This document shows, one piece after another, positions 4,618 to 47,604 of a stretch of DNA of 47,604 bases. Source of the DNA: Tepidisphaeraceae bacterium (lineage in GTDB: Bacteria; Planctomycetota; Phycisphaerae; Tepidisphaerales; Tepidisphaeraceae); assembly GCA_050011595.1 (NCBI GenBank), contig JBEKIV010000046.1, positions 1-47,604 of the forward strand, written 5' to 3'. Under the pieces are notes generated by a model. That model saw nothing but the letters and a program-made list of their open reading frames with translations. It did no database searches and had not been told where the DNA came from. The stretch's first letter is position 1. Every line of letters starts with the position of its first letter. Both the position numbers and the translations under genes were made by a program.

Positions 4618-6609
4618 GTGCAAGAAAAGCTGGATGAAGAGAAGAGCGACGTTTCATTGGCCCGGGCCAAGCGATCGTCCCGGGAGGTCTGGCAACTTGC
4701 TGCGCTGATCTTGGTGACGTTTGCCGCGTATTATCCGACGCTGGGCAATGGATTCGTCTGGGATGATGACCGGTACGTCGAGCAGAATTACCAGCTTCGC
4801 ACGCTGAAGGGGCTGGAGCGAATCTGGCTGGAGCCGTTGAAGGCCGAGCCGCAGTATTATCCGCTGACGCATACGACGCTGTGGGTTGAATATCATTTCT
4901 GGCGCCTGCGCGCGTTCGGATACCACCTGGACAATCTTGCTCTGCACGCGGCGGGAGCGGTGTTGCTGTGGCGAATCCTGCGGCGGCTGAAATTGGGCGG
5001 GGCATGGGCGGCGGCCATTGTTTTCGCGGTCCATCCGCTGCAAGTGGAATCGGTCGCCTGGGTAACGGAGCGGAAAAACGTCCTCAGCGGATTTTTTTAT
5101 TCCCTTTCGCTGTGGGCCTATCTGCAAACGAAATGGGGCCGGCGAATTTGGGATTCGCAAGACAGCGGCCGGATTGGCGCGGGATGGTATTTTCTGAGCC
5201 TGCTGTTGTTCGCGGCGGCGATATTGAGCAAATCGGTCACGGCCACGCTGCCGGCGGCGATTTTGGTATTGTGCTGGTGGAAGCGGGGGAAAATTCGCGC
5301 CGGCGACGTGTGGCCGGTGACGCCGATGCTGGCTGCGGGGGCGGCCATGGGAGGGTTGACGGGATGGATGGAGAAGCACGTGGTCGGCGCGATCGGGCCG
5401 GACTTCGATTTTCTCACTCCGCTGGATCGCCTCTGCATCGCCGGCCGGGCGTTTTGGTTCTATTTGACCAAGCTCGCCTGGCCCGAACACCTCAGCTTCA
5501 TCTATCCGCATTGGCAGGTCGATCCGGCGCAGCGGCCGATTTGGATTCTTTTCCCCCTGACGGCGATGGGATTATTGATCGGATGCTGGCTGCTGCGTCG
5601 CCGGATCGGCCGCGGGCCGGCGGCGGCGATGTTCTTCTTCGCCGGGACGCTTGTCCCGGCGATGGGATTCGTGAACGTGTTTCCGATGCGGTATTCATAC
5701 GTCGCGGATCATTTCCAATATCTCGCGTGCATCGGCCCGATCGCGCTGATCGTTGGAGTTCTAAGCACCGGATGTACATCCGGTGCTGCGCGTGTGTTGG
5801 CGGGTTTGGTCATTGTGACGATATGCGCCGCGAGCAATGTGCGTGCTCGGGTGTTCCTGGATCGCCGAACGCTCTGGACGGACACGCTGGCGAAGAACCC
5901 CGATTCGCGGGTGGTTCGCAATAATTACGCGGCCGCGCTGAGGGATGCCGGAGAATTGGAGGCGGCCAAGTCGCAGTATCGCGCCGCGATGCGGCTCGGG
6001 AACGACGCGGGAGACTGGGTGGGGCTGGGTCAGTGCTTCGCCATGCAGGGCGATTTTTCGACGGCGCGGGATATGTATCTCAAAGCCCTCGCCGCGACGC
6101 CGGTTTCCAGCGAGCCGGTCTTTCAGCGGATGCTCGCCGGACGATACTTTCAGCTTGGGACGGCCTATCAGGGATTGGCCGGTGAATATCTCGCCAAGGC
6201 CGAGGAAAGTTATCGGCGGGCGATCGATCTGTTTCCCGAATACGAGGACGCGAGAAAAAATCTGGCGTTGGTGTTCATCGATCAAAAGCGATATCCGGAA
6301 GCGATCGAGCAGTGCCAGGCCATACTGGACCAGAATCCCGATTCGGTCAGCGCGCATACGAATCTAGGTACGGCATATTACGAGCAAGGCCGGCTCGATC
6401 TGGCTCTGCAAGAATATCAATTCGTGCTGGAATTAGAGCCTGAAAACGTCGGCGCGCTGGCCAGCTCGGGGGCGATCCTGGCCCAGCAGGGCCACGTTGA
6501 TGCGGGGATCGAGATGCTGCAAAAGGCGTTGAAGATCGACCCGAACAACGCGATGGCCCAACAGGATTTGCTGGCGGCGATGAACGCGCGGGCGCGAGCG
6601 CGGCGGTGA
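4618..6609 (+). CDS. Paralogous GT-C membrane glycosyltransferase with C-terminal TPR repeats
   Basis: 663-aa ORF with a GTG start. It has the same hallmark after TM1 (GFVWDDDRYVEQN) and shared blocks with the upstream gene (QYYPLT.T.LWVE, NVLSG, ADHFQYLA). Clear TPRs at the C-terminus (AIDLFPEYEDARKNLALVFIDQKRYPEAIEQCQAILDQNPDS...). Confidence 0.75.
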   Translation: MQEKLDEEKSDVSLARAKRSSREVWQLAALILVTFAAYYPTLGNGFVWDDDRYVEQNYQLRTLKGLERIWLEPLKAEPQYYPLTHTTLWVEYHFWRLRAFGYHLDNLALHAAGAVLLWRILRRLKLGGAWAAAIVFAVHPLQVESVAWVTERKNVLSGFFYSLSLWAYLQTKWGRRIWDSQDSGRIGAGWYFLSLLLFAAAILSKSVTATLPAAILVLCWWKRGKIRAGDVWPVTPMLAAGAAMGGLTGWMEKHVVGAIGPDFDFLTPLDRLCIAGRAFWFYLTKLAWPEHLSFIYPHWQVDPAQRPIWILFPLTAMGLLIGCWLLRRRIGRGPAAAMFFFAGTLVPAMGFVNVFPMRYSYVADHFQYLACIGPIALIVGVLSTGCTSGAARVLAGLVIVTICAASNVRARVFLDRRTLWTDTLAKNPDSRVVRNNYAAALRDAGELEAAKSQYRAAMRLGNDAGDWVGLGQCFAMQGDFSTARDMYLKALAATPVSSEPVFQRMLAGRYFQLGTAYQGLAGEYLAKAEESYRRAIDLFPEYEDARKNLALVFIDQKRYPEAIEQCQAILDQNPDSVSAHTNLGTAYYEQGRLDLALQEYQFVLELEPENVGALASSGAILAQQGHVDAGIEMLQKALKIDPNNAMAQQDLLAAMNARARARR

Positions 6610-6644
6610 CTTAGAAGGTATGCACGCATAACTCCGCATTTCTC

Positions 6645-6670
6645 CCCTCCCCTGGTACTCCGGGGGAGGG
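6645..6670. repeat. C-tract/G-tract hairpin (ccctcccc-N10-ggggaggg) 36 nt after the stop of the upstream gene
   Basis: 8-bp perfect stem read directly from the sequence and followed by caagggtggggg. There is no U-tract, so it is not a classical terminator. It abuts the MITE at 6684. Confidence 0.4.
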
Positions 6671-6683
6671 CAAGGGTGGGGGC

Positions 6684-6808
6684 TAGAGCACGTTGCAAGT
6701 CGGTGTACACCGGTCAAAATCCACCCGCGCGAATTCTGCCCGGAACGCCCACGGCGCTGCCGTGGGTCTTTCTTCGCCAAAGTGTACATCGACCTGTAAC
6801 CCGCTCTA
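6684..6808. mobile_element. 125-bp MITE-like element, copy 1 (uninterrupted)
   Basis: The 27-nt termini tagagcacgttgcaagtcggtgtacac and gtgtacatcgacctgtaacccgctcta are inverted repeats, matching at 22 of 27 positions by hand alignment. There is an internal hairpin cccacgg-cgctg-ccgtggg. A second copy about 95% identical is at 41101-41379. There is no coding capacity. Confidence 0.7.
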
Positions 6809-6902: not shown

Positions 6903-9074
6903 TCACGAAACAGGCTGCACGAAATCGAGCAGCAGCGTTTTTCGGCCGGAGATGGGAAAATCAACAATCACGCGACTGTGGGAGAGATCGACGATCCGGC
7001 CGACGCCGAAGGTGGGATGTCTTACGGACTGGCCGACGTGCAGATCGCAGTGCGAGGGGTCGGGGTCGTGAGTCTCGGCGGGCTCGGGGGTGACGATCTT
7101 CAGCATGTCCCTGGGCATCTGGGCGAGGAATTGGCTGGTGGCGGTGGTCGTGGAATGGCCGCGAATCATTCGGCGGGCGGATTTAGAGAAAATCAGGTGC
7201 TGCTGGGCGCGGGTGATGCCGACGAAACAGAGGCGGCGTTCTTCTTCAAGTTGGTCGGCGTCTTCCATGGCGCGGGAATGGGGAAGACAGCCTTCCTCCA
7301 GTCCGATGATGGCGACCACGGGGAATTCCAGGCCCTTGGCGGAGTGGAGGGTCATCAGCGTGACCGCGCCGCCGGAACCTTCCATGTGATCGGCGTCGCT
7401 GACGAGGCTGACCTGGGCAAGATAATCGTCGAGCGATCCCTCGGGATTTTGCTTGTCATATTCGGCGGCGGCGGAGATCAACTCGGCGACGTTGGCCAGT
7501 TGGTCTTCGGCATCGGGGTCCTCCTTGCGGAGCATTCGCTCAATGCCGCTGCGCTGAAGAACCTCCTCCATGAGTGAGCGGAGGTTGCGGGTGACGCCGT
7601 CGCGGGGAGCGCGGAAAGATTCGATGATCGCGACGAATTTGGCCACGGAATTGATCGCGCGGGCGGAGAGGCCGGGGATTTGGCCGGCTTCGTGCATGGT
7701 TTGCCAGAGGGTCTGGCCGGCGCCGACGGCGTGGGCTTGCATGACCTTCACGCTGGCGTCGCCGATGCCGCGGGTGGGGACGTTCACGATGCGCGTGAGG
7801 CTGACCTCGTCGGCGGGGTTGGCGATCAGGCGCAGATAGGCCAGGACGTCTTTGATTTCCCTGCGGTTGTAGAATTCCACGCCGCGGGCGATCTGGTAGG
7901 GAATCCGCTTGCGCCGCAGGGCGTCTTCCATGACGCGCGAGAGAGAATTCATGCGATAAAAGATGGCCATGCGGTTCCAATCGGTCCCCTGGTCGTGGAG
8001 GCGGGCCAGTTCCTCGGCGACGGCCGCGGCCTCGTCGTGTTCGTCGCGGCAGAGCAAAACCAGGGCCTTTTCGCCCGCGTCGTTTTCCGTCCAGAGCCGC
8101 TTGTCCTTGCGCCGATGATTGTGGGCGATCAGGCGTTCGGCGATGGCCAGGATCACCTTGGTCGAGCGGTAATTCTGTTCGAGGCGGATGACGGTGGCGT
8201 CGCGGTAGTCCTTTTCGAAATCGAGAATATTGGCGATGTCGGCGCCGCGCCAGGCGTAAATGGATTGGTCCGGATCGCCGACGACGCAGATGTTGCGATG
8301 CTTCATCGCCAGGGCGTGAACCAGGACGTACTGGGCATGATTGGTATCCTGGTATTCGTCGATGAGGATGTATTTGAAGCGGTCCTGAAGCTCGGCCAGG
8401 ATCGTCGGATGCTGCTGCATGGCCCGGACGGCACACAGGAGCAGGTCGTCGAAATCGAGGGCATTGGCGGCCGAGAGAAGCCGCTGATATTTCCCAAAAA
8501 TCTGGGCAACGAGTTGCGTATAACGGTCGAAAGCGGATTGGGCATATTGATCGGCGTCGATGAGGCGGTTCTTGGCGTTGCTGATCGTTCCGTGGATCAT
8601 CCCCGGCGTGGCGTTGCCCAGGGGAATGTCCAGCGCTTTGATCGCGTCCTTGATGACCTTGGATTGATCCGAGGCATCGTAGACGCTGAAGTTGGGCGAA
8701 AGGCCGATGGTTGGGGCGTAATGCTTGAGAATCCGCAGGCACAGTGAATGGAAGGTGCAGATGATGGGCCAGGGCTGATCGAGCCGGCCCCAATCGCGGA
8801 TGGGCTTGGGGGAGGCGTCGGAAATTCGCTGCTTCATCTCGCCCGCGGCCTTGTTGGTGAAGGTGATGGCGAGGATGGATCGAGGCTCGATGCCCAGGCT
8901 CATGAGATACCCGACGCGGCGAGTGATGACGCGCGTCTTTCCACTGCCGGCGGCGGCCACGATCAGCAACGGGCCGTCGACGTGGGTGACGGCGCGGCGC
9001 TGAGGCTCGGTGAGGCCGTCGAGAAGCGAGTCGGTTGGGGGGCTTGGGGGCACTGAGAAACTATAGCCCGGCAA
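6903..9074 (-). CDS. uvrD: ATP-dependent DNA helicase, UvrD/PcrA/Rep family (SF1A)
   Basis: 723-aa ORF with Walker A AAAGSGKTRV, the motifs FTNKAAGEM, DEYQDTN, VGDPDQSIYAWRGA and QNYRS, and C-terminal TLHSAKGLEF. Confidence 0.9.
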   Translation of the reverse strand: MPGYSFSVPPSPPTDSLLDGLTEPQRRAVTHVDGPLLIVAAAGSGKTRVITRRVGYLMSLGIEPRSILAITFTNKAAGEMKQRISDASPKPIRDWGRLDQPWPIICTFHSLCLRILKHYAPTIGLSPNFSVYDASDQSKVIKDAIKALDIPLGNATPGMIHGTISNAKNRLIDADQYAQSAFDRYTQLVAQIFGKYQRLLSAANALDFDDLLLCAVRAMQQHPTILAELQDRFKYILIDEYQDTNHAQYVLVHALAMKHRNICVVGDPDQSIYAWRGADIANILDFEKDYRDATVIRLEQNYRSTKVILAIAERLIAHNHRRKDKRLWTENDAGEKALVLLCRDEHDEAAAVAEELARLHDQGTDWNRMAIFYRMNSLSRVMEDALRRKRIPYQIARGVEFYNRREIKDVLAYLRLIANPADEVSLTRIVNVPTRGIGDASVKVMQAHAVGAGQTLWQTMHEAGQIPGLSARAINSVAKFVAIIESFRAPRDGVTRNLRSLMEEVLQRSGIERMLRKEDPDAEDQLANVAELISAAAEYDKQNPEGSLDDYLAQVSLVSDADHMEGSGGAVTLMTLHSAKGLEFPVVAIIGLEEGCLPHSRAMEDADQLEEERRLCFVGITRAQQHLIFSKSARRMIRGHSTTTATSQFLAQMPRDMLKIVTPEPAETHDPDPSHCDLHVGQSVRHPTFGVGRIVDLSHSRVIVDFPISGRKTLLLDFVQPVS

Positions 9075-9105
9075 GGGGGGCGAAAAAAGGCGGCGTGGGA
9101 CAAAC

Positions 9106-9218
9106 CCGAAATCCGAAATCCGAATGACGAATCAAATCCGAATGACGAAATCCGAAGCCGTATTCATTTCGTCATTCGGGTTTCGGGCTTGATTCGTCAT
9201 TCGGATTTCGGATTTCGG
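9106..9218. repeat. 113-bp composite palindrome built from CCGAAAT / CCGAATGACGA units
   Basis: The outer arms ccgaaatccgaaatccgaatgacgaatca (9106-9134) and tgattcgtcattcggatttcggatttcgg (9190-9218) are perfect 29-nt reverse complements. The inner arms ccgaatgacgaaat and atttcgtcattcgg are a perfect 14-nt pair. It lies in the divergent uvrD-pabB intergenic region. Confidence 0.85.
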
Positions 9219-28191: not shown

Positions 28192-28265
28192 CCGGCGAGC
28201 TTGCTCGCCGTATTTTGGTCTTGCGCGCTACCGGAAAATACGGCGAGCAAGCTCGCCGGCTACAC
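28186..28265. repeat. REP doublet: perfect 31-bp inverted repeat with an 18-nt loop
   Basis: gtgtagccggcgagcttgctcgccgtatttt (28186-28216) and aaaatacggcgagcaagctcgccggctacac (28235-28265) are exact reverse complements. Each arm also holds the mini-palindrome ggcgagc-tt-gctcgcc. Confidence 0.85.
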
Positions 28266-43524: not shown

Positions 43525-43563
43525 CGATTGATGAGGTGCCCCGCCTGGCGCTGTATGGATTCC

Positions 43564-43592
43564 GTGTAGCCGGCGAGCTTGCTCGCCGTATT
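43564..43592. repeat. Orphan REP half-site (single arm)
   Basis: gtgtagccggcgagcttgctcgccgtatt is identical over 29 nt to the left arm of the 28186 REP. It starts 40 nt after the phoU stop, between convergent genes. Confidence 0.75.
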
Positions 43593-43607
43593 GATCCAAA
43601 CGTCGCG

Positions 43608-43967
43608 TCAAAGCGATTTCGCATATTCAATCATGCCTTGAAAATCGACAACGACCGCAACTTCGTCGCCGACGACCCAGGCATCGTGGCCGGAGGGCAA
43701 GAGGGAAACGTCGCCCGGCTTGCAGTCGAACTCCGTGCCATCGTCCATGCGAACCCGCAGCACGCCTGAAACGTGATACTGGAAATGCGGAGCTTCGCAA
43801 CTTTTGGTCTTGGCAATCGGCTGAATTGACGTGGCCCATCGCCAGCCCGGCTCGAAGATGGCTCGGCCAACTGTCGCGCCGCCGACCTTGATCAACTCCA
43901 ATCTGCCTTTGGGAAACTTCCGAACCTCATCCGGTTTACCGAAGTTCTTCAATTCCGCTTTCTTCAT
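43608..43967 (-). CDS. Cupin-domain protein
   Basis: Trimmed to Met29 (MKKAELKNFGKPDEV...), which is preceded by AAAGGAGA. The cupin-like core is HFQYHVSGVLRVRMDDGTEFDCKPGDVSLLPSGHDAWVVGDE. Confidence 0.7.
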   Translation of the reverse strand: MKKAELKNFGKPDEVRKFPKGRLELIKVGGATVGRAIFEPGWRWATSIQPIAKTKSCEAPHFQYHVSGVLRVRMDDGTEFDCKPGDVSLLPSGHDAWVVGDEVAVVVDFQGMIEYAKSL

Positions 43968-44143
43968 ATGTCTCCTTTCCGTTCCTCGATGGCGATTGCG
44001 AGAAACTCGATACGCCCAAGGCATCGAAAGCGGAGCCTTGGCTATCCACACGTGGTTGATTCCGTGCTCACGCGAACAGTTTAGGCATGGAGCGAGTGGA
44101 TAGTCGAGGGCTGGGGGCAGTGCGCGACATCCCCATTCCTCGC

Positions 44144-44416
44144 TCAGCTTGGCTTCGTGGTCGACTTTCCATGGTGACGGTGATGGCGGCGGTGATGGTG
44201 ACGGCGCCAGTGGCGATGGTGCCGGTGATGGTGATGCCGCCAGCGCCGGTGATGGTGGCGGTGGCGCCGGTGGTGATGCTTATGGGCCGGTCGGCTGGTG
44301 GCTCCGTTGGCGGATGCACCATTGCCCGATGGGTTCGGGTTGGACGCCGTTGCCATGCAGGGGATAAACCCGGCAAACAGTGCAATCAAGATTAAAATTG
44401 TGACCTTACGGCTCAT
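44144..44416 (-). CDS. Small secreted His/Arg-rich protein
   Basis: 90-aa ORF with the signal peptide MSRKVTILILIALFAGFIPCMA, a Gly/Asn/Ser/Ala linker, and then a 40-residue tract HKHHHRRHRHHHRRWRHHHHRHHRHWRRHHHRRHHRHHGK (22 His, 13 Arg, 2 Trp by hand count). AAGGAG lies 13 nt upstream of the ATG. The two alternative frames lack any signal peptide. Confidence 0.55.
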   Translation of the reverse strand: MSRKVTILILIALFAGFIPCMATASNPNPSGNGASANGATSRPAHKHHHRRHRHHHRRWRHHHHRHHRHWRRHHHRRHHRHHGKSTTKPS

Positions 44417-44478
44417 GCTTGACCCCGTTCTCCTTGAAAATCTCCGAGCAAGATATATGCATGATTGCGATGGTTGAA

Positions 44479-45306
44479 TTATTTCTTACCGGCGGCGACC
44501 CAGTCGTCGATCGCTTGACCCAACTCGGGGTTGGACAATAGGTCGGCCATTTCGTTTTCCATCCAGTGACGCAGGCAGGGGATTGGATCCATTCCCGCAA
44601 CCAGTTTGCGCGCCTCATCCTCCAGCGCGGACTGCTGATCCCCGTATTCTTCCGCCGAGAGGCGATGGACTCGCGTCAGCAGTTGATTCACCTTGGAGAC
44701 AATCTTCGGCGGCTTCCCCGGATTTACGCCGCCGCTGAGCATGCCCAACTCTTTGGACGTGTCATCTCGCAGAGATGCGAAATCATCATCGGAAAGATCA
44801 CGGCTCTGATGCACCGCATCGAGAAGCAGTTCGGTGGGATCGTCGATATCCTCCGCATTTTGGCCGATGTAACCGGCAACCTGCTTGACTGAAAGCGTCT
44901 TGAGAAAAGTGACGGCCTTGGTCTTGGCGGACTCGGATTGCTCCACATCCGGCTCGGAATCGGGGTCTTGTTTGTCTGCCGCATCGCCGATCTTGTCTTC
45001 GGCGCTGTCGATCCTGTCTTCGTCTTTGCTGAGCAGCGCGTCGCGCATATCTTTCATCGCGGCGTTGTAATCGGCCGTGACAGGTGCTGGCGTATCCGAG
45101 AGCGTGCCAGCCGTGTCCGAGGCCAAGTCCTTTAAGGCCGATAGTTGTTCTGGCGTCAGGTTCAGATCATGCAACGTGGAAAGCGCGTCGACCTGAAGTT
45201 CCAACTTCACCTCGCCGGATGGCTTGTCTGTTTGCGCCTGGAGAAAGCGACTTCCGATGAACAGCCAAAGCGCCGCGGCAAAGAACAAGGTGTATGGGTT
45301 TCGCAT
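44479..45306 (-). CDS. Secreted, strongly acidic hypothetical protein
   Basis: 275-aa ORF with the signal peptide MRNPYTLFFAAALWLFIGSRFLQA. A hand count of the mature part gives roughly 52 Asp+Glu against about 26 Lys+Arg. No family recognised. Confidence 0.6.
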   Translation of the reverse strand: MRNPYTLFFAAALWLFIGSRFLQAQTDKPSGEVKLELQVDALSTLHDLNLTPEQLSALKDLASDTAGTLSDTPAPVTADYNAAMKDMRDALLSKDEDRIDSAEDKIGDAADKQDPDSEPDVEQSESAKTKAVTFLKTLSVKQVAGYIGQNAEDIDDPTELLLDAVHQSRDLSDDDFASLRDDTSKELGMLSGGVNPGKPPKIVSKVNQLLTRVHRLSAEEYGDQQSALEDEARKLVAGMDPIPCLRHWMENEMADLLSNPELGQAIDDWVAAGKK

Positions 45307-45436
45307 GGGACAGAATTTCCCTAATGAGCCCTTATCTGATCAAACGTCCAGCCACGATTAATATTCCAAGCAATTTCGATTTATTTTGGCGATCTTGCCC
45401 ACGGAATACAAGGCGACCCGGACGCCGTGCGGATAC

Positions 45437-46762
45437 TTAGAAACCGATCTGAAGCCGTATTGTCGCAACCAGCGCATTGGGATACGTGCCGCCGGGATTT
45501 ACGATGTACTGCAGGTCGGGCTGGATGAAAGCCCAAGGCGTTAGCTGCCATTGATAGAACGCTTCCAGTGCGATTTCATACGAATGCGACAATCCTGCCT
45601 GTGGGCTGATGTGGGCGTATTGCGGGCTGAAACCGATGATGTCGTCCGCTCGGGCGCCAAACACACCTGTCCAGGTAATCCCACCGCCGAAATGCTGATC
45701 GATGACACTGATGTCGTTCTGCGTGCCGCCGTATTCGAGGAATGTCCGCAAGCCCCGTCCCTTGTCGGGTTCACCGGCGGGTTGCCAAATAGTCTGGTCA
45801 AAGATGCCGTAGTAACCGTAGGTGCCTTCCTGCTGCGATCCGTCGAAGCGCATGAAGGTTCCGGTATCCCCCCAAGCGCCCACCTTGAGGTTGCCGGCAA
45901 GCCCGAGCAAGGGTGTCCCATGCCATTTAATGCCGGTCTCGCCGATGAGAAACGTGCCGAATTCGGCGGGCTGATTTTTCGCGGGATCGTCCACCAAGTC
46001 GCCAAATCGGTCCGAGCGGTTCGCGTAATAGGCGCCCAAGCCCGCGTAATAGGAATCGTTGGGTGTGAAGAAGACATTGACTGACGGCATCGGATCGGGC
46101 GTGGTGGGAAACATGAAGATCGTCGGGCTGACCTGTGTCGAGCTATTGATGAATGGCAGGCCATTGTCGATGACGCTGAATTCGGTGTTGGCATCCACCT
46201 TGCCGACCTTGATGCGAAGTTTGCCGTCAAACAGTTGCTGCTGATACCACATCTCGAAGATCTGGAAATATGGCCGTGTATTTTGCTTATCGAACACCTG
46301 AAGATCGCCTACCAGAGTGCTCGTCGGATTGCCGAACGCGTGGTCTTCCAAATCCACGTAGAACTCGCCGCCAGGCAAGTGCAGCAAACTTTCGGTGTCC
46401 AAGGCAAAGTTCAAATCCAAGGTTGTGGCTCCGACGGCATGAGCGGTGTCGATGCCGCCCTGAAAGTTGTCGAAGCCTTCAGCGATGAGGGTGGCGCCGA
46501 CCGTGATTCCCGCATCCTGCAATTTCTGCCGCTGCCCCCACCAATCGCCGGTCAGGTTGTTCTCAAAGCTCGCGGGGGATGTCGTGGGATTCTGCTGCGT
46601 CGTGCCGACCTCCGGCTGCGTCGCCACATCGGCAAACAGCGGATTGTCATTTTGAGAACCGGAGGTTTCCGCCATCGCCGTGCAAAGCGATGCCCGCGAA
46701 AGAGCCGTCAGAACCGCGGTGCGGCCGAGAACGGCCGCGCATCGACGAATCGCCCTGCCCAT
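45437..46762 (-). CDS. OprB-family (carbohydrate-selective-type) outer-membrane porin
   Basis: 441-aa ORF with a signal peptide ending in AMA. The OprB-type N-terminal signature is LTGDWWGQRQKLQDAGITVGATLIAEGFDNFQGG. It has an alternating beta-strand pattern and a C-terminal ...IRLQIGF with terminal Phe. Confidence 0.75.
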   Translation of the reverse strand: MGRAIRRCAAVLGRTAVLTALSRASLCTAMAETSGSQNDNPLFADVATQPEVGTTQQNPTTSPASFENNLTGDWWGQRQKLQDAGITVGATLIAEGFDNFQGGIDTAHAVGATTLDLNFALDTESLLHLPGGEFYVDLEDHAFGNPTSTLVGDLQVFDKQNTRPYFQIFEMWYQQQLFDGKLRIKVGKVDANTEFSVIDNGLPFINSSTQVSPTIFMFPTTPDPMPSVNVFFTPNDSYYAGLGAYYANRSDRFGDLVDDPAKNQPAEFGTFLIGETGIKWHGTPLLGLAGNLKVGAWGDTGTFMRFDGSQQEGTYGYYGIFDQTIWQPAGEPDKGRGLRTFLEYGGTQNDISVIDQHFGGGITWTGVFGARADDIIGFSPQYAHISPQAGLSHSYEIALEAFYQWQLTPWAFIQPDLQYIVNPGGTYPNALVATIRLQIGF

Positions 46763-46920
46763 AAGCCCTGCTCCCTCAAACCGGAGGTCTTTGATATCGA
46801 AGTTCGTTATAATGGGACGCGGGGGGCGCGGTCAATGTCGTTGCCGCGCAACTGGACTTGGCATTTTGCCTCCGGCGGCTCGCATCGATCGACACGATCA
46901 TCTATAACGAATTGCGCGCT

Positions 46921-47232
46921 ATGGCAGATCAAGACCTCTATTCCGGACTGATTCGCCTGCATGTCCTCCATCATGCCCGTCGGGAGCCGCTCTTCGGGTT
47001 GGGCATGATCAGGGAGTTGCGGCGGCACGGGTATCGAATCGGCCCCGGCACGCTTTACCCCGTGCTACACCGGCTGGAGCAAAAGCGGTATCTTCGCTCG
47101 CATAAGCAGGTCATCGGGGGAAAATTGCGCCGTTGCTACAGCATCACTCCTGCCGGCCGACGCGCCCTGACGCAAGCTAAAGCCAGGGTAAGCGAACTGT
47201 TCGAGGAATTATTCCAGCCCTCCGACGCTTGA
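46921..47232 (+). CDS. PadR-family transcriptional regulator
   Basis: Trimmed to the ATG at 46921. Contains LIRLHVLHHARREPLFGLGMIRELRRHGYRIGPGTLYPVLHRLEQKRYLRS....GGKLRRCYSITPAGRRAL. Confidence 0.85.
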   Translation: MADQDLYSGLIRLHVLHHARREPLFGLGMIRELRRHGYRIGPGTLYPVLHRLEQKRYLRSHKQVIGGKLRRCYSITPAGRRALTQAKARVSELFEELFQPSDA

Positions 47233-47329
47233 CGCAAACCATTGCCGCGACTACTGTATCGAAAGCCGATAACGATGAATGCCTCGCAAGTCACGACGCT
47301 CGCATCGCTATCGATCGGGAGACCGCGCG

Positions 47330-47604
47330 ATGGAAATGTCGTCCAGGGAATTATGGACCGCGCTTCACGGCATGGTGTTCGGGGCTGCGTACCTCCTGGC
47401 ATTCACGGGCGGTTTCATCGCACTGTGGGACTTTCGCCCCGACTGGATTGTCGGCAACGCAGGTAAGATGGCCGCACGGCGTCTTATGGCCTGGACTTGG
47501 GCCATGGCAATTCTTGCTTGGCTCACCGTCCTCGTGGGAACGTACGTGGTGTATCCGTGGTATCGTGCGAATCCCCCGCCGGGAACAATCGGCTCGGCAT
47601 TGAT
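47330..47604 (+). CDS. Partial CDS running off the right edge: hypothetical membrane protein
   Basis: Absent from the ORF track because it has no stop in the window. Hand translation from the ATG at 47330 gives MEMSSRELWTALHGMVFGAAYLLAFTGGFIALWDFRPDWIVGNAGKMAARRLMAWTWAMAILAWLTVLVGTYVVYPWYRANPPPG..., with two clear TM helices. The two listed ORFs in the other frames look like shadows. Confidence 0.45.
   Translation, partial: MEMSSRELWTALHGMVFGAAYLLAFTGGFIALWDFRPDWIVGNAGKMAARRLMAWTWAMAILAWLTVLVGTYVVYPWYRANPPPGTIGSAL

Follow-up and report, generated by a model that had tools for sequence, protein, structure and literature searches.

An acidic secreted protein and a His-rich polycation encoded side by side in Planctomycetota

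Why would a bacterium encode an extremely acidic secreted protein directly next to an extremely basic secreted peptide? The question is raised by contig JBEKIV010000046.1 (GenBank assembly GCA_050011595.1), a stretch of 47,604 nucleotides that is called the window here. Its host is an uncultured Tepidisphaeraceae-like planctomycete with matches in peat and wetland metagenomes. The initial annotation of this DNA had grouped the two genes with a porin gene and a cupin gene into one envelope module under a divergently encoded PadR regulator. A smaller unit emerges from the present analysis. An acidic protein and a His-rich, acid-poor secreted polycation are encoded side by side across Planctomycetota, as a pair whose movement is independent of the porin, PadR and cupin genes. 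The functional unit in the window is best read from sequence comparison as a two-gene operon on the minus strand, at about 44144-45412, and not as a set of four genes. It is made up of the following features.

44479-45306, minus strand: gene of the acidic secreted protein (open reading frame of 275 aa; all-helical model; unnamed Planctomycetota family)
44144-44416, minus strand: gene of the His/Arg peptide (open reading frame of 90 aa with a signal-peptide-like N-terminus)
44417-44478, minus strand: intergenic spacer of 62 nt between the acidic gene and the peptide gene
45307-45412, minus strand: sequence 5' of the acidic gene, conserved in relatives without the porin

All open reading frames of the initial annotation were found at their positions in the ORF listing, and its figure of about -26 for the charge of the acidic secreted protein agrees with the residue count. 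The mature part of this protein, which follows a signal-peptide-like N-terminus, contains 34 Asp, 18 Glu, 18 Lys and 8 Arg, giving a net charge of -26. The peptide begins MSRKVTILILIALFAGFIPCMATA; its signal peptide leads into a Ser/Asn/Gly/Ala linker, which is followed by a His/Arg(/Trp) tract of 40 residues and a tail, KSTTKPS. Its mature part contains 22 His, 14 Arg, 3 Lys and 2 Trp with no Asp or Glu. An AAGGAG sequence lies about 14 nt ahead of the peptide ATG, within the spacer between the two genes.

In the Tepidisphaeraceae-like clade (at least 46% identity), the peptide gene was found on the same strand and 19-64 nt 3' of the acidic gene at 13 of 14 distinct loci, a count from which L034 was left out because its flank is too short. 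At the 12 loci other than the window, the orthologous peptides have the same architecture. The acidic proteins of these close pairs carry -20 to -27, and their peptides carry +12 to +20 (Arg and Lys minus Asp and Glu) with 10-22 His, so that the spread of both charges is narrow. The surrounding genes differ between the neighbourhoods opened at this level of identity and include a 4HBT thioesterase, a TOBE protein, an arabinofuranosidase and a MacB-type ATP-binding cassette (ABC) exporter. The last of these is found in L091 (1-4285), where the pair lies directly 3' of, and co-directional with, the genes of a MacB-type tripartite exporter (FtsX permease, membrane-fusion protein and ATPase).

The association extends to more distant relatives. 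Partner genes were sought within 1.5 kb of the acidic-family gene with a compositional filter whose output was checked by eye (signal-peptide-like start, at least 8 His, net charge of at least +10, Asp plus Glu below 6%). A partner passed at 30 of the 46 distinct loci with enough flank, namely the window and 29 others. Applied to 271 kb of sequence elsewhere in these loci and in the remainder of the window, the filter passed three open reading frames, or 0.04 per neighbourhood, each apparently for a membrane protein. The suggestion in the initial annotation that the acidic protein and the basic peptide belong together was thus borne out, both in the close clade and phylum-wide. The window pair itself consists of adjacent genes whose products both have signal peptides and whose basic member has the partner composition. 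Partners may lie downstream of, upstream of or divergent from the acidic-family gene.

The Tepidisphaeraceae-like polycation is a mature peptide of about 60-70 residues with a His/Arg/Trp tract. Beside acidic homologues that are 26-39% identical (Gemmataceae and others), the adjoining gene encodes a longer secreted protein with many His and Arg/Lys and almost no Asp/Glu, and in Gemmataceae-like clades this longer His-rich protein often has a CarboxypepD_reg-like beta-sandwich. One type is 138-215 aa long and has such a beta-sandwich (Pfam matches up to 4e-11) together with tracts such as IRLHKHHHHH. Another, of about 265-283 aa, starts with AHHA/PAHH repeats, and a third is encoded by a divergent upstream gene and has 250-273 aa with a net charge of +39 to +54. 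The partner types share composition, not sequence. Separately, the locus L016 was seen to carry two paralogous acidic-family genes (6001-6732 and 8405-9136) around an opposite-strand gene (7597-7977) whose 126-aa product is secreted, basic and His-containing.

The charge of acidic-family members is linked to the presence of a partner. The median net charge of acidic-family members is -20 with a partner and -12.5 without (Mann-Whitney p 1.6e-4, kinship ignored), and among members less than 40% identical the mean is -16.4 with a partner against -9.8 without (p 0.016, kinship again ignored). The near-neutral members at L026, L078, L082 and L023 have no partner.

What kind of protein is the acidic member? 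It had zero matches in Pfam, NCBIfam and PADLOC. A word-indexed search returned 56 homologues, and a profile search of 1.84 billion representatives returned 696 clusters (50% identity) at E<=1e-3, 543 of them at E<=1e-10. The members that come from genomes belong to metagenome-assembled genomes (MAGs) of Tepidisphaeraceae, Gemmataceae, Planctomycetaceae and other Planctomycetota. In the family alignment, a C-terminal ADLLSNPQL motif is conserved and no conserved His or Cys ligands were seen. The most acidic stretches are kept in the family consensus (residues of about 95-125, DDDKID.AEDK..DL.DKQDPDS.PD, and residues 150-165 and 170-186). An AlphaFold2 model made from a 26-sequence alignment is all-helical, with 13 helices, a predicted local distance difference test score (pLDDT) of 90.8 and a predicted template modelling score (pTM) of 0.83. 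A Foldseek search of the PDB with this model gave no match (best E 0.21, TM<=0.2), and a sequence-profile search of the PDB with the acidic protein gave noise only.

The small helical periplasmic proteins Spy, CpxP and ZraP were considered as relatives, and membership was dropped. Sub-threshold support came from 3 of 26 family members only: two matched Metal_resist (PF13801; best 3.9e-5, 24.3 bits against a cut-off of 29.2) and one matched LTXXQ (PF07813) at 0.022. The acidic protein of the window matched neither PF07813 nor PF13801, and no Spy, CpxP or ZraP entry was present among its Foldseek or PDB-profile matches. The matches of distant members hint at a remote kinship, not at membership. 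Some distant, less acidic members were observed in fusions of other kinds. In P0195 and P0245 the fusion is to an N-terminal domain of about 300 aa (LRVLLFASSPTREYQFL...), and in L018 (1317-2720) and L064 (1935-3392) the acidic domain is followed by a C-terminal basic linker and a small beta domain. A Rosetta-stone search for a fusion of the acidic domain with a His-rich partner found these other fusions, which were uninformative, and none of the kind sought.

The peptides are alike in architecture and not in sequence when aligned. Their common features are an M-x-R-K start with a hydrophobic core, a linker that closes with T-S-(R/Q)-P-(A/V)-H-K-H, 30-40 His/Arg residues with 1-4 Trp, and a tail such as K-S-T-T-K-P-S. 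The window peptide had no match in Pfam, NCBIfam or PADLOC, and a homology search among 5.8 billion predicted proteins returned two proteins. So few matches were found because the sequence is of low complexity and the genes are rarely called. Gene callers almost never predict these peptide genes, which leaves a gap in annotation. A single-sequence AlphaFold2 model shows one long helix over the His/Arg tract (pLDDT 80-90, pTM 0.30) and is weak evidence that the peptide could dock as a helix. The tract was also noticed to be bracketed by similar motifs of the form T-[ST]-[RKQ]-P-[ASV], with TSRPA before and TTKPS after, which may be processing or modification sites. A 944-bp metagenome contig (P0178) encodes a secreted 97-aa protein with the same HRRHWRRHHHRHWRHHHHRR tract and a Tyr/Gly/Pro-rich C-terminus (YRPYYYGYYGYPYYY).

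How far does the unit extend beyond the two genes? The other features of the locus are listed below.

43608-43967, minus strand: small cupin-like gene with a weak Cupin_2 match
45437-46762, minus strand: OprB-family porin gene (Pfam OprB, 1.2e-43)
46803-46911, no strand assigned: control region between the divergent PadR and porin genes, with the inverted 9-mer TTCGTTATA / TATAACGAA
46921-47232, plus strand: PadR-family regulator gene (Pfam PadR, 1e-18)
47279 to the window end (47604): open reading frame of a membrane-protein gene 3' of PadR
43561-43600, no strand assigned: GC-rich hairpin GGCGAGCTTGCTCGCC that resembles repetitive extragenic palindromic (REP) elements, at a synteny breakpoint with relatives

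The initial annotation had treated the porin, the acidic protein, the peptide and the cupin as one PadR-controlled envelope module with the porin as the exit. All four genes lie on the same strand with short gaps, and a terminator scan of the minus strand found no terminator-like site between them, the spacer at 44417-44478 included. A search for RNA runs that contain the stretch returned none. Their adjacency is also genuine in several samples. Independently assembled Logan contigs from several peat runs cover 43952-46900, 44243-46662 and 44645-45746 with zero mismatches, and since they cross the junction of the porin and the acidic gene, the arrangement is real DNA and no binning artefact. 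Against the module stand two close relatives that each hold one half of it without the other. L088 has about 91% DNA identity to the window (porin 90%, PadR 92% and PhoU 96% at the aa level) and has the divergent PadR and porin genes, then a small 84-aa gene, then phoU. Its similarity skips from window position 45438 to 43600; the acidic, peptide and cupin genes are missing, and window 43601-45437 is an insertion relative to L088. L029 has the acidic protein (84% aa), the peptide (78%) and the cupin (95%), then phoU, and upstream of the pair it has lipopolysaccharide (LPS) genes and neither porin nor PadR. The window has both blocks, PadR-porin and acidic-peptide-cupin, side by side. The three layouts occupy one chromosomal spot, between LPS-core genes (3-deoxy-D-manno-octulosonic acid (Kdo) kinase and GT9 heptosyltransferase) and phoU.

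DNA similarity to L004 (82%) spans window 45412-44136, from about 105 nt upstream of the acidic start to just beyond the peptide stop. In L030 (75%) it spans 45279-44184 and begins inside the acidic gene. In both it stops right after the peptide gene, where there is no cupin. The cupin is likewise absent 3' of the pair in L001, L002, L003 and L091, and it is present only in L029. Among the other loci that carry the pair, the porin and PadR were each found at none, and the porin occurs without the pair in L088, L089, L090, L092 and L093. The gene-neighbourhood check proposed with the initial annotation was therefore upheld for the acidic and peptide genes, which co-occur, and failed for the porin, PadR and cupin genes, which do not travel along, apart from the cupin in L029. 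The tie of the pair to PadR likewise fell away. The acidic gene also has an upstream region of its own. About 105 nt ahead of it are conserved in relatives without the porin, with similarity starting at window 45389 in L029 and at 45412 in L004, and since the region is conserved where the porin is missing, a promoter of its own is suggested. Within it, GGAATATTAATCGTGG at 45352-45367 on the minus strand is a possible -10 region or regulator site. Moreover, an OprB-type channel is an improbable passage for a 7-kDa polycation. A single PadR-controlled module is highly improbable on these grounds, and we take the four-gene set to be two modules that chance has brought together in a variable region. 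The cupin appears to be a neighbour that accompanies the pair only in its closest relative. It is cupin-like in size and pattern, with a sub-threshold match to Cupin_2 (PF07883; 18 bits against a cut-off of 27.2, E 0.0024).

The divergent PadR and porin genes make up a second module, conserved and independent of the first. The porin is an OprB protein (PF04966, E 1.2e-43, 150.4 bits against a cut-off of 22.9, profile positions 9-372 of 372) with more than 440 homologues, annotated as carbohydrate porin. Proteins at 55-66% identity to it were observed in MAGs labelled Brocadiia, Omnitrophica, Syntrophobacteraceae and Limisphaerales, and this high identity across phyla suggests that the porin spread horizontally. 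The regulator is a PadR protein (PF03551, E 1e-18, 67.5 bits against a cut-off of 27). Its score against the Rv3488-like NCBIfam model (1.3e-30, 105.6 bits) is below the cut-off of 140, which places it outside the Rv3488 subfamily. L088 and L089, whose porins are 90% and 72% identical, carry the genes of a 179-aa membrane protein and then of a 115-126-aa protein after PadR, the whole set being divergent from the porin; L090, L092 and L093 lack it. The two proteins 3' of PadR have no Pfam family (window 47279-47604; L088 3510-4434; L089 3534-4443).

The 158-bp divergent spacer was said to contain an inverted 9-mer, and both copies, TTCGTTATA (46803-46811) and TATAACGAA (46903-46911), were confirmed. 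These are the only two occurrences of the 9-mer in the window, where 0.03 would be expected, and the inverted match stretches to 14 nt at 86% complementarity. Each copy, read toward its own gene, is TATAACGAA. In a spacer alignment, the window, L088 and L089 all have the porin-side copy conserved, at a distance of 17-18 nt from the preceding TTGACC. On the PadR side conservation is only partial (CGTTATA), and 10 nt separate the end of this copy from the start codon of PadR. A sigma-70 scan under a strict rule found no promoter. Our own reading of the alignment would place a porin promoter at TTGACC-N17/18-TATAAC. The repeat may thus be two -10 regions, an overlapping PadR operator, or both. 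The whole spacer is well conserved, and the repeat is not singled out by conservation.

The cupin-side end of the locus is flanked by pstB and phoU (Pfam). In E. coli, asr is under Pho control. A functional link between pstB-phoU and the pair was considered and rejected, since the pair stands beside pst genes in no other locus except the near-identical L029. The interval from the Kdo kinase and GT9 genes to phoU was observed to be strain-variable, with three layouts among relatives that are 84-91% identical in DNA. Both L088 and L029 have the small gene ahead of phoU (84 aa in L088, containing ...QLHALYLKRVAKCHNRN...), which is not in the window. The REP-like hairpin, which recurs many times in the metagenomes, sits at the 43600 breakpoint (breakpoints at 43599/43600 against relatives), and further copies are found at 28194-28210 and 28241-28257. 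In peat metagenomes, the summed contig depth rises from about 12-24 to 130-416 across 43542-43662, with many loose ends.

What could such a pair do? From the sequences we infer, rather than show, a mechanism. We tentatively prefer, as a reading that may be right, a polyanion/polycation pair of the periplasm: the acidic protein would hold the peptide, and the titration of His would act as a pH switch, functionally like E. coli Asr. Both products would be exported by Sec to the periplasm. There the folded polyanion would bind and neutralise the polycation, roughly 1:1, as a holdase or escort, and this binding would keep the peptide off LPS, phospholipid and peptidoglycan. More speculatively, the histidines could make the pair a pH switch, such that on acidification the polycation might be released and might serve as a coat or buffer for anionic components of the envelope and for clients. 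Calculated with textbook pKa values, the net charge of the window pair is -7 at pH 7 (-26 against +19), neutral near pH 6.3, +20 at pH 5 and +44 at pH 4. The acidic partner alone would have about +5 at pH 4, and the peptide about +38 at peat pH. At a peat pH of 4-4.5 the partner loses most of its negative charge, so that a peptide of about +38 would be freed. An acidic peat or wetland habitat fits the pH-switch reading. A broader proposal, which we consider improbable, is a phylum-wide periplasmic polyelectrolyte system in which a polyanion of a new fold and interchangeable His-rich polycations would form a pH-gated charge reservoir or condensate that protects the envelope in acidic, humic-rich peat. 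The Tepidisphaeraceae polycation would then have been reduced to a His/Arg/Trp tract of about 40 residues.

Several observations weigh against the holdase and pH switch. If the periplasm is permanently at pH 4-4.5, simple pKa values predict a weak attraction, and a holdase would need shifted pKa values. The peptide is Arg/His-rich, not Lys/Ala/Gln-rich, and has no Pfam Asr match. There is no partner at 16 of the 46 loci, and at the one exception in the close clade, L035 (55% identity), a convergent gene takes the place of the peptide. The tests that relate charge to partners treat loci as independent and ignore shared ancestry. Finally, close strains differ in whether they have the cassette, which sits in a rearrangement hotspot, and an accessory function in antagonism would also fit this pattern.

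That last pattern leads to the antimicrobial reading, in which the Arg/Trp/His peptide is a histatin- or indolicidin-like weapon directed at competitors and the acidic protein protects the producer until export. In its favour are the Arg/Trp-rich cationic composition with a conserved Trp, the strain variability, the exporter genes ahead of the pair in L091, and the somewhat faster divergence of the pair than of its flanks in L029 (84/78% against 95-99% aa). A dedicated exporter, a processing protease or leader enzyme, or a membrane immunity gene does not recur beside the pair, however, and the ABC exporter is seen only in L091. The partners in other clades are 140-280-aa proteins with a beta-sandwich domain, unlike antimicrobial peptides, and a Sec signal would load the producer's own periplasm. 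PADLOC also gave zero matches. Such a weapon and antidote are therefore rather doubtful. A structural role, in which the two polyelectrolytes form a pH-tunable coacervate or gel, either on the surface or in the enlarged periplasm of planctomycetes, and neither chaperones the other, would account for the near-matched opposite charges, the His-rich and Arg/Trp sticker-type composition, and the retention of composition alone among highly dissimilar partner sequences. The acidic protein is, however, modelled with confidence as a folded globular helical protein and not as a disordered polyanion, and we regard this role as distinctly improbable.

Metal handling is also unlikely. Here the His-rich partner would store, buffer or deliver periplasmic Ni, Zn, Cu or Co by binding it, and the acidic protein would be a co-chaperone or second cation binder. 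His tracts do bind divalent metals well. By composition, partner peptides weakly match the His loops of ZIP (0.029) and ZrgA (0.03), and the sub-threshold Metal_resist and LTXXQ matches point the same way, as does the resemblance of the adjacent PadR to Rv3488-type regulators, though PadR does not accompany the pair. Yet one third of the tract is Arg/Lys and none of it is Asp, Glu or Cys, a composition that speaks against cation binding and sets it apart from Hpn-type proteins. His would be protonated at peat pH and bind metal poorly, no metal transporter or regulator recurs beside the pair in the neighbourhoods opened, and the acidic family is without conserved His or Cys ligands. The fold search gave no ZraP-, Spy- or CpxP-like structure.

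The periplasmic polyanion/polycation reading, if its pairing proves to be a physical complex, would have consequences beyond this locus. It would provide the first dedicated acidic partner for an exported polycation in the bacterial periplasm, and a first functional entry point to an unnamed family, of about 700 clusters, without a detectable structural relative. The pair is a natural, genetically encoded, pH-titratable polyanion/polycation system, with relevance to the acid tolerance of peat microbes, the envelope biology of Planctomycetota and the design of protein-based coacervates. In the literature searched, neither the acidic protein nor the peptides nor their pairing was described. The secreted zinc protein ZepA (PMC10957091), a folded PEP-CTERM protein, is unrelated.

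How does the pair compare with known systems? E. coli Asr is reported to be a disordered chaperone of the periplasm that is induced and activated by acid and helps to keep the outer membrane intact (PMC10746267, citing Ren et al. 2022). Asr and the peptide are alike in being basic, His-containing and of low complexity without acidic patches, and the charge of both rises on acidification; Asr is exported by Sec and the peptide has a signal-peptide-like start. The long His/Ala/Lys/Pro-rich partners in L010, L049 and L058 come closest to Asr in composition. Asr is Lys/Ala/Gln-rich, whereas the window peptide is Arg/His/Trp-rich, and an Asr profile had no match at E<=10 to the window peptide or to four partner proteins. 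We know of no dedicated acidic partner gene for Asr.

Acidic proteins that chaperone or inhibit polycations include nucleoplasmin and NAP1, prothymosin-alpha with histone H1, and the immunity proteins of colicin DNases. As proposed for the pair, an acidic protein neutralises a basic cargo by charge in these systems. They belong to the eukaryotic nucleus or to cytoplasmic nuclease toxins and have no homology to the pair. Unlike them, the pair has signal peptides on both partners and a cargo whose charge can be titrated through about 20 histidines. Hpn-type proteins and histatins share the extreme His content of the peptide, and histatins are also cationic and respond to pH and metals. Hpn, however, is cytoplasmic and carries Cys, Gln and Glu, and histatins are animal salivary peptides; to our knowledge, neither comes with a conserved acidic partner gene. 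Spy, CpxP and ZraP resemble the acidic protein as small secreted all-helical proteins, and its N-terminal LNLTPEQL is reminiscent of the LTXXQ motif. The acidic protein is twice their size, strongly acidic instead of basic, and has no match to them above the cut-off. Based on the conserved gene association, the composition and the lack of a family or fold match, we rate the pair as a new kind of gene cassette, to which Asr, the acidic chaperones and Spy/CpxP/ZraP would stand as functional analogies only.

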